A DNA stretch of 64,000 nt from Escherichia coli (GTDB taxonomy: Bacteria > Pseudomonadota > Gammaproteobacteria > Enterobacterales > Enterobacteriaceae), in assembly GCF_044324875.1 (NCBI RefSeq), contig NZ_CP172185.1; one strand, 5' to 3'. The position numbers were made by a program, and so were the translations under genes. The notes under the pieces were generated by a model, which saw nothing but the letters and a program-made list of their open reading frames with translations, did not search any database and was not told the origin of the DNA. Shown piece by piece: positions 38,341 through 38,506 of the stretch (position 1 is the stretch's first letter; every line of letters starts with the position of its first letter).

Positions 38341-38506
38341 ACGTTTAGTCCGACGAGTTTTGATCATGCATCACCTCATTTTCACTTTTTAACATTAACA
38401 GTGAAAATGAGGTGTCCTGAATTACCGATCCACTACACAGAGAGTGACCAAAGGATAACGTGTCCTGAGTTTCCCTATTATAGAGAACTGTTCAGGGAGG
38501 CTGACA

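Follow-up and report, generated by a model that had tools for sequence, protein, structure and literature searches.

The template-switch model of quasipalindrome mutation reportedly goes back to Ripley in 1982. The Lovett laboratory is said to have worked on such mutations in E. coli with a hotspot in thyA and with the lacZ reporters QP5 and QP6, and Rosche et al. are said to have proposed, in 1997, an intermolecular switch on the leading strand. In E. coli, quasipalindromes are turned into perfect or more perfect inverted repeats via template switching (PMC7202029), and the inverted repeats of proteobacterial genomes have been argued to be homogenised by the same process (PMC5941160). RNA stems have likewise been perfected in a single template-switch event (PMC8794818).

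Stem-loops in the leaders of transposase genes are the other group of described systems that bears on the locus studied here. The transposases of IS10 and IS50 are reportedly protected from transcription that enters from outside the element, by what is called ‘fold-back inhibition’; this is said to be the subject of work by Davis, Simons and Kleckner in 1985 and by Krebs and Reznikoff in 1986, and of the 1998 review by Mahillon and Chandler. For both elements, stem-loops that sequester the Shine-Dalgarno sequence (SD) have been proposed (10.1101/2025.01.24.634351). An SD-sequestering stem-loop is also present in the 5′-UTR of IS200 tnpA (PMC4513863), and in IS2, a member of the IS3 family, a weak promoter of the extended −10 type lies immediately inside the left terminal inverted repeat (IRL), with an OrfA-binding site beside it (PMC3299598).

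The window, which is the whole 64-kb stretch of E. coli DNA that we analysed, contains a long perfect hairpin within the remnant of an ISKpn37-like element (Table 1). Taking all parts of the reading jointly, we think it rather likely that the hairpin is an orfA leader stem-loop of the ISKpn37 type, that its ancestor sequestered the SD of orfA, that one of its arms was then converted by a template switch, and that it now survives as a neutral fossil.

Table 1. Features of the ISKpn37-like remnant and its hairpin (window coordinates; arm, loop and tract sequences in the sense of the IS).
Feature	Position	Strand	Remarks
ISKpn37-like fragment	37600..38437	-	838 bp of a ~1258-bp element; cut at 37600 by an IS66-family element
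Left terminal inverted repeat (IRL), TGTAGTGGATCGGTAATTCAGGACACC	38411..38437	-	identical to the IRL of intact copy L011
orfA start codon, ATG	38365..38367	-	4 nt downstream of GAGGTG
orfA remnant	38227..38367	-	46 codons; HTH_Tnp_1 (Pfam); ends at nonsense change 38228 G>A
orfB remnant	37585..38118	-	HTH_21 and start of rve integrase core (Pfam); NF033516 transpos_IS3; cut by IS66
ISEc52/IS911-like IS remnant	38438..38830 (outer boundary approximate)	-	insertion site of the ISKpn37-like element
Hairpin, CACCTCATTTTCACT-GTTAATGTTAAAA-AGTGAAAATGAGGTG	38372..38414	-	15-bp perfect stem and 13-nt loop
Sense 5′ arm (anti-SD arm), CACCTCATTTTCACT	38400..38414	-	first 4 nt, CACC (38414-38411), are the inner end of the IRL
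Sense 3′ arm, AGTGAAAATGAGGTG	38372..38386	-	same as in other copies; holds the orfA SD GAGGTG (38377-38372)
Loop, GTTAATGTTAAAA	38387..38399	-	conserved TGnTAATnT; one C of all other copies absent at 38387
Converted tract, ATTTTCAC	38401..38408	-	canonical GAAATC-C; 4 substitutions (38408-38405) and a 1-nt insertion (38402)

On the + strand, the hairpin reads CACCTCATTTTCAC-TTTTTAACATTAACA-GTGAAAATGAGGTG. An inverted repeat with these two outer sequences had been pointed out at the same position in the original prediction, and we confirm it; the stem is perfect, as was claimed there, but it is one pair longer than the 14 bp given, and the loop of 15 nt shrinks accordingly. When one mismatch was allowed, a repeat search of the window returned arms of 18 nt at 94% complementarity. 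Among perfect hairpins with loops of 3-20 nt, this one is the longest in the window (runner-up 11 bp), and first-order Markov simulations of the window (n = 100) gave a maximum stem of 13 bp, compared with 15 bp here. For the 43-mer, folding predictions give −21.5 kcal/mol for RNA (z = −8.6) and −14.7 kcal/mol for DNA (z = −8.2). A search for additional copies, which the original prediction had proposed, turned up no second copy of an arm within the 64-kb window. The runner-up, at 48256-48281, has a GC-rich stem and a 4-nt loop (AAACGGACCTC-CGTG-GAGGTCCGTTT), and may be a terminator or a REP-like element.

The element that holds the hairpin was identified by comparison with an intact copy, L011, to which the fragment in the window is 97.1% identical over 839 nt, down to 37600. 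The transposase of L011 is annotated as ‘IS3-like element ISKpn37 family’, as are those of plasmid copies at 97% identity. The intact copy is bounded by IRL TGTAGTGGATCGGTAATTCAGGACACC and by the right inverted repeat TGTAGTGGATCACAAAATCAGGACACC, with a 3-bp duplication, GGC, on both sides, and related copies in E. coli genomes start at window positions 38437-38440. In the sense of the IS, the order is IRL…GGA-CACCTCATTTTCACT-GTTAATGTTAAAA-AGTGAAAATGAGGTG-ATGC-ATG(orfA), which puts the SD GAGGTG at the end of the 3′ arm, 4 nt ahead of the start codon. Because the 5′ arm starts with the last 4 nt of the IRL and the 3′ arm ends in the SD, we read the hairpin as the orfA leader, neither a separate element nor the terminus itself. 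It had been placed just upstream of the IS3-family orfA remnant; it is instead inside the IS remnant, on the − strand, between the IRL and the orfA start codon. The suggestion that it could be part of an IS terminus was right insofar as it lies in the left end of an IS3-family element, where its 5′ arm shares 4 bp with the inner end of the 27-bp IRL. The comparison with catalogued IS termini produced no exact match, and copies annotated as ISKpn37 carry an imperfect version that differs at six positions. Three points were absent from the earlier description: the − strand reading, the orfA SD in the 3′ arm, and the status of the perfect stem as a derived state of one lineage.

To judge by its sequence, the copy in the window is dead: orfA carries a nonsense codon (38228, a window-specific change), there is a 1-nt insertion at 38067, and orfB is truncated by the IS66-family element. 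The remnant ends at 37600, and neither a right inverted repeat nor a target-site duplication was found for it in the window. The truncating IS66-family element is ISEc8-like and occupies 35194-37599. On its other side, the ISKpn37-like element sits in an ISEc52/IS911-like remnant that lies on the same strand, so that transcripts of this remnant would read into the hairpin. An inverted-repeat-like sequence at 38455-38474 (GTGTCCTGAG) was considered as a second, related IS end and was dismissed as a coincidence, since 38438-38520 is internal ISEc52/IS911-like sequence.

The surroundings are rich in other repeats. A diverged IS66-family pair (~926-2831 and 35447-36841; 73-78% identity) lies in inverted orientation, its second member belonging to the ISEc8-like element at 35194-37599. 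Two IS21-family copies of 2,641 bp (32606-35246 and 61134-63774), with istA-like ORFs of 548 aa, are 100% identical, in direct orientation and 28.5 kb apart; they could make up a composite transposon or offer a substrate for deletion. An inverted repeat pair of 1,333 bp at 95% identity (15344-16676 and 50115-51447) presumably represents two copies of another IS, and self-BLAST found short tandem direct repeats at 6198-6609 and 20378-20482 (period of ~100 nt at 86-94%; 48 nt at 100%). A PhoX-family gene (39458-41437) adjoins the IS nest. In E. coli AR_0085, the genomic island with the IS nest adjoins yjgR-lptGF-pepA-holC-valS, a site that we take, from the K-12 map, to be the leuX region.

All other copies that we retrieved, from E. 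coli chromosomes and plasmids, from Raoultella and from the Yersinia enterocolitica plasmid pYV, carry CACCTCGAAATCCTGTTAATGTTAAAACAGTGAAAATGAGGTG (the canonical allele). The canonical leader folds into an outer stem CACCTCG/UGAGGUG with one G·U pair, a 3x3 internal loop of A·A mismatches, two pairs, a bulged U and an inner stem CUGUU/AACAG, which amounts to 7 + 2 + 5 pairs and a predicted −14.3 kcal/mol. Relatives (n = 8) share one set of six differences from the window, at 38408, 38407, 38406, 38405, 38402 and 38387. In the multiple alignment, 15 changes in 853 aligned columns are specific to the window, and 5 of the 15 fall within 7 nt (P ~1.5e-5 under uniform placement). These five changes (G>A, three A>T and one inserted A) convert GAAATC-C into ATTTTCAC, a sequence exactly reverse-complementary to GTGAAAAT of the opposite arm. 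Every one of them creates a Watson-Crick pair, such that the G·U pair, the three A·A mismatches and the bulge are all repaired, and all are confined to one arm; outside 38387, the opposite (3′) arm is the same as in the other copies. The sixth change, at the loop-proximal end of that other arm, is the loss of a C at 38387, which shortens a possible 18-bp stem (−27.0 kcal/mol) to 15 bp. As read from this alignment, the perfect stem represents a derived allele that is specific to the locus.

The two alleles are sharply separated in the databases. Among 5,426 complete E. coli genomes, 497 records contain the region; 41 of these carry the perfect allele, 100% identical over 91 nt including an 8-nt flank, and the remaining 456, at 95% identity or below, have the canonical allele. 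The band between 95% and 99% is empty, and there are no intermediate alleles. Carriers of the perfect allele include poultry, human and bovine isolates. In PLSDB (72,556 plasmids), the perfect allele was not found, all 227 matching records being at 95% or below, and neither the plasmids nor the E. coli genomes hold it in any other context. An exact scan of metagenome contigs for the converted arm returned three contigs, all collinear with the window locus. A donor IS, or an independent lineage with the converted arm, was found neither in these E. coli genomes, plasmids and metagenomes nor among ~100 left and right ends of IS3-family elements from other species, nor in an IRL scan of genome contigs. 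Two plasmid matches (H161 and H162), which had looked as if they continued into the flank, were rejected as the ancestral orthologous locus, as their insertion sites are different and have only TCTCTG in common with that flank, by chance. In two of the metagenome contigs with the perfect hairpin (L137 and L138), a point near 2869 is joined almost directly to 37600, with a 31-nt unaligned gap, and ~34.7 kb (2870-37599) are absent; the IS66/ISKpn37 junction is a site of structural polymorphism.

A template switch is the most likely cause of the arm conversion. In the ancestral IS, the inner end of the IRL (…GGACACCTC) would pair with the orfA SD around the short inner stem CTGTT/AACAG. At this quasipalindrome, a single template switch during replication would allow the nascent strand to copy the complementary arm briefly, either its own or that across the fork, before it returned to its template; 8 nt of one arm would thereby be rewritten, and the imperfect stem would become perfect. 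We recognise the signature of such a switch in the combination of a prior quasipalindrome, a cluster of changes in one arm, full complementarity to the other arm and the lack of intermediates. The view that there was a single event, and its timing, would rest on this lack of intermediates, and the orthologous locus with the ancestral allele was not found. The lost C at 38387, for which a simple one-arm conversion does not account, would be either a second event or the trace of an imprecise switch.

Conversion of the sense 5′ arm fits a lagging-strand intramolecular switch and a leading-strand intermolecular switch alike. The window's own GC skew is uninformative for fork direction, the island being a mosaic. 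The core genes from yjgR to ytfK in strain AR_0085 have a GC skew of −0.026 on the + strand, which suggests a fork that moves toward lower window coordinates, with the sense strand of the IS as the nascent leading strand. Given the other defects of the copy (the nonsense codon in orfA and the truncated orfB), we regard the perfected stem as most likely a mutational fossil, neutral in effect, that one lineage of E. coli has inherited.

The change resembles quasipalindrome mutations as described (PMC7202029; PMC5941160), in that it is clustered, involves several nucleotides and makes one arm the exact complement of the other, and it shares with the quasipalindrome reporters the host, E. coli, and similar sizes of arm and spacer. 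Unlike the reporter mutations, the event in the window is natural, fixed and deduced by comparison, with strand and intra- or intermolecular mode not distinguishable; unlike the classical pattern, it is accompanied by an extra 1-nt deletion beside the loop. As in the cases of Monttinen and Loytynoja (2022; PMC8794818), one event would have produced several apparently compensatory changes and extended a prior RNA stem. Their cases concern rRNAs and structural RNAs under selection, whereas the window offers the mRNA leader of a transposase in a pseudogenised IS that is probably neutral.

Other origins of the perfect arm are less convincing. IS copies recombine, the region is a nest of IS fragments, and a short conversion tract could look like a cluster of mutations, all of which would suit recombination or gene conversion with a diverged ISKpn37 relative whose leader hairpin is natively perfect. 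We consider this quite improbable, because the search of E. coli genomes, plasmids, metagenomes and ends from other species revealed no donor, and because the tract is the exact reverse complement of an arm 20 nt off, for which a local template is the simplest source. The five changes might also have been acquired singly, under selection that favoured a stronger hairpin, for instance one that silenced a harmful truncated OrfA produced by read-through from the IS911-like remnant. That remnant does lie upstream on the same strand, and the perfect stem adds ~5 kcal/mol to the predicted cost of opening the ribosome-binding site; yet the empty 95-99% band among the 497 E. coli records speaks against stepwise change, as does the fact that four adjacent substitutions and an insertion at the right place all match the complement (chance ~(1/3)^4 x 1/4). 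Moreover, orfA already contains a nonsense codon, which leaves little to silence, and the accompanying deletion of a C weakens the stem, making selection of this kind very unlikely. As to an artefact of sequencing or assembly, or an inverted repeat that arose by chance, only the general possibility can be cited in favour; the same sequence occurs in 41 independently assembled complete genomes and in 3 metagenome contigs, and none of the 100 simulations reached even a 14-bp stem, such that we regard the probability as negligible.

A different kind of alternative is that the hairpin is an autonomous functional element of this locus (a terminator, a protein-binding palindrome, a cruciform or a small RNA) instead of an IS leader. 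Its stem is indeed very stable and is 100% identical in 41 genomes, but the flanks are identical too, so that the identity fits recent common descent, and the structure can be traced to the IS leader nucleotide by nucleotide. The stem has no T/U run after it on either strand, and a consensus scan of 38150-38900 reported neither a terminator nor a promoter; a Rho-independent terminator was discarded on these grounds and because the stem is AT-rich. Rfam offered no credible match; its only hit, MIR4387, scored 19.8 bits where the gathering score is 84 (E = 0.91). Overall, there is scarcely any likelihood that an element of this sort is present. A coding role was also rejected, since no Pfam domain was matched by the 163-aa + strand ORF that spans the hairpin, in agreement with the original view that no coding role is obvious.

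We turn to the function of the orfA leader in ISKpn37 and its relatives. In the minimum-energy folds of ~10 of 12 left ends from diverse relatives, the IRL is paired at its inner end with the SD. This pairing recurs in elements that are only 66-68% identical (Yersinia pestis pCD1 and Serratia), where ACCTCAAT pairs with ATTGAGGT, and in IS3-family elements of Pseudomonas and other genera that can no longer be aligned, where GGACACC pairs with GGUGUYC; the inner stems of the latter (GGUGGUAAA/UUUACCGCC, GGCGA/UCGCC and GUGGAU/AUCCAC) are unrelated in sequence. Within the alignable relatives, 76.7% of cells are paired in register, compared with 33-52% in slid controls. Covariation among them is modest: 5 pairs have changed on both sides, a result likewise obtained in 23 of 500 shuffles. 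The 5′ arm of the hairpin is also constrained by its role in the IRL. Complementarity between the IRL inner end and the SD region of orfA (GAGGTGTC), around an inner stem specific to each lineage, was further seen at L013, L014, L022, L078, L107, L113 and L131. The complementary left ends belong to IS3-family elements with TGTAGTGG…GGACAC termini (Yersinia, Serratia, Pseudomonas and others).

Since distant relatives keep the pairing between repeat end and SD, read-through transcripts with the ancestral structure probably have their ribosome-binding site sequestered. To open the leader from the SD through the AUG is predicted to cost ~6.1 kcal/mol in an RNA that lacks the 5′ arm, and in read-through RNA 10.9 kcal/mol for the canonical allele and 15.7 kcal/mol for the window allele. 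A transcript from outside the IS would carry both arms, leaving the ribosome-binding site sequestered, and one that starts at a predicted promoter in the loop would have the 3′ arm alone and could be translated. The loop motif TGnTAATnT is conserved (TG at 38400-38399, hexamer TAATGT at 38397-38392), and a promoter pattern can be drawn from a −35 TTCAGG and TGtTAATGT, with 3 of 6 matches in each hexamer and no promoter reported by the consensus scan. From the conservation of the motif and its likeness to IS2, we infer a putative weak promoter of the extended −10 type; the motif could instead be an operator for OrfA. The circle-junction promoters of the IS3 family would yield transcripts with both arms, which complicates a purely protective role.

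Several features of this arrangement have counterparts in the described systems. IS10 and IS50, like ISKpn37, have a left-end inverted repeat and a distal arm that covers the SD and AUG; the native promoter is proposed to lie between the arms, such that the hairpin would form in read-through transcripts alone. They belong to the IS4 family, unlike ISKpn37, an IS3-family element for which the mechanism is argued by analogy and the promoter position is predicted. In IS200, as in the ISKpn37 leader, a stem-loop in cis pairs an anti-SD with the SD, and that of IS200 represses translation (PMC4513863). Both arms are part of the native IS200 transcript, and control is supplemented by an antisense sRNA and by Hfq; for ISKpn37, no antisense RNA is known or predicted. 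IS2 shares the IS3 family with ISKpn37, and TGnTAATnT in the ISKpn37 loop occupies a position analogous to that of the IS2 promoter, but the left ends have no sequence similarity, and the ISKpn37 motif is a putative promoter or operator. More tentatively, the pairing of the IRL inner end (GGACACC[TC]) with the orfA SD (GAGGTGTC) might constitute a conserved translational lock of the IS3-family subgroup with TGTAGTGG…GGACAC ends, from Enterobacterales to Pseudomonas. In this general form we hold the proposal to be doubtful, and we found no description of such a lock for this subgroup in the literature searched.

In sum, the hairpin appears to be a variant allele of the ISKpn37 leader stem-loop, made by a known mutational mechanism, and both of the processes concerned are already known. 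Nothing suggests a new kind of element or a present function at the locus, and the overall importance is modest. The allele nonetheless provides a clean natural case of multi-nucleotide templated mutation in E. coli, with four substitutions and an insertion in apparently one step and with the ancestral state kept in hundreds of paralogous IS copies. Template-switch events inflate local mutation counts and can mimic compensatory evolution of RNA stems, which matters when IS copies or leaders are compared. The pairing between the IRL inner end and the transposase ribosome-binding site in many IS3-family relatives is a testable candidate for protection against read-through. If the conserved lock is real, the perfecting of a stem by template switching would be a one-step route for host replication to tighten an IS leader against read-through.
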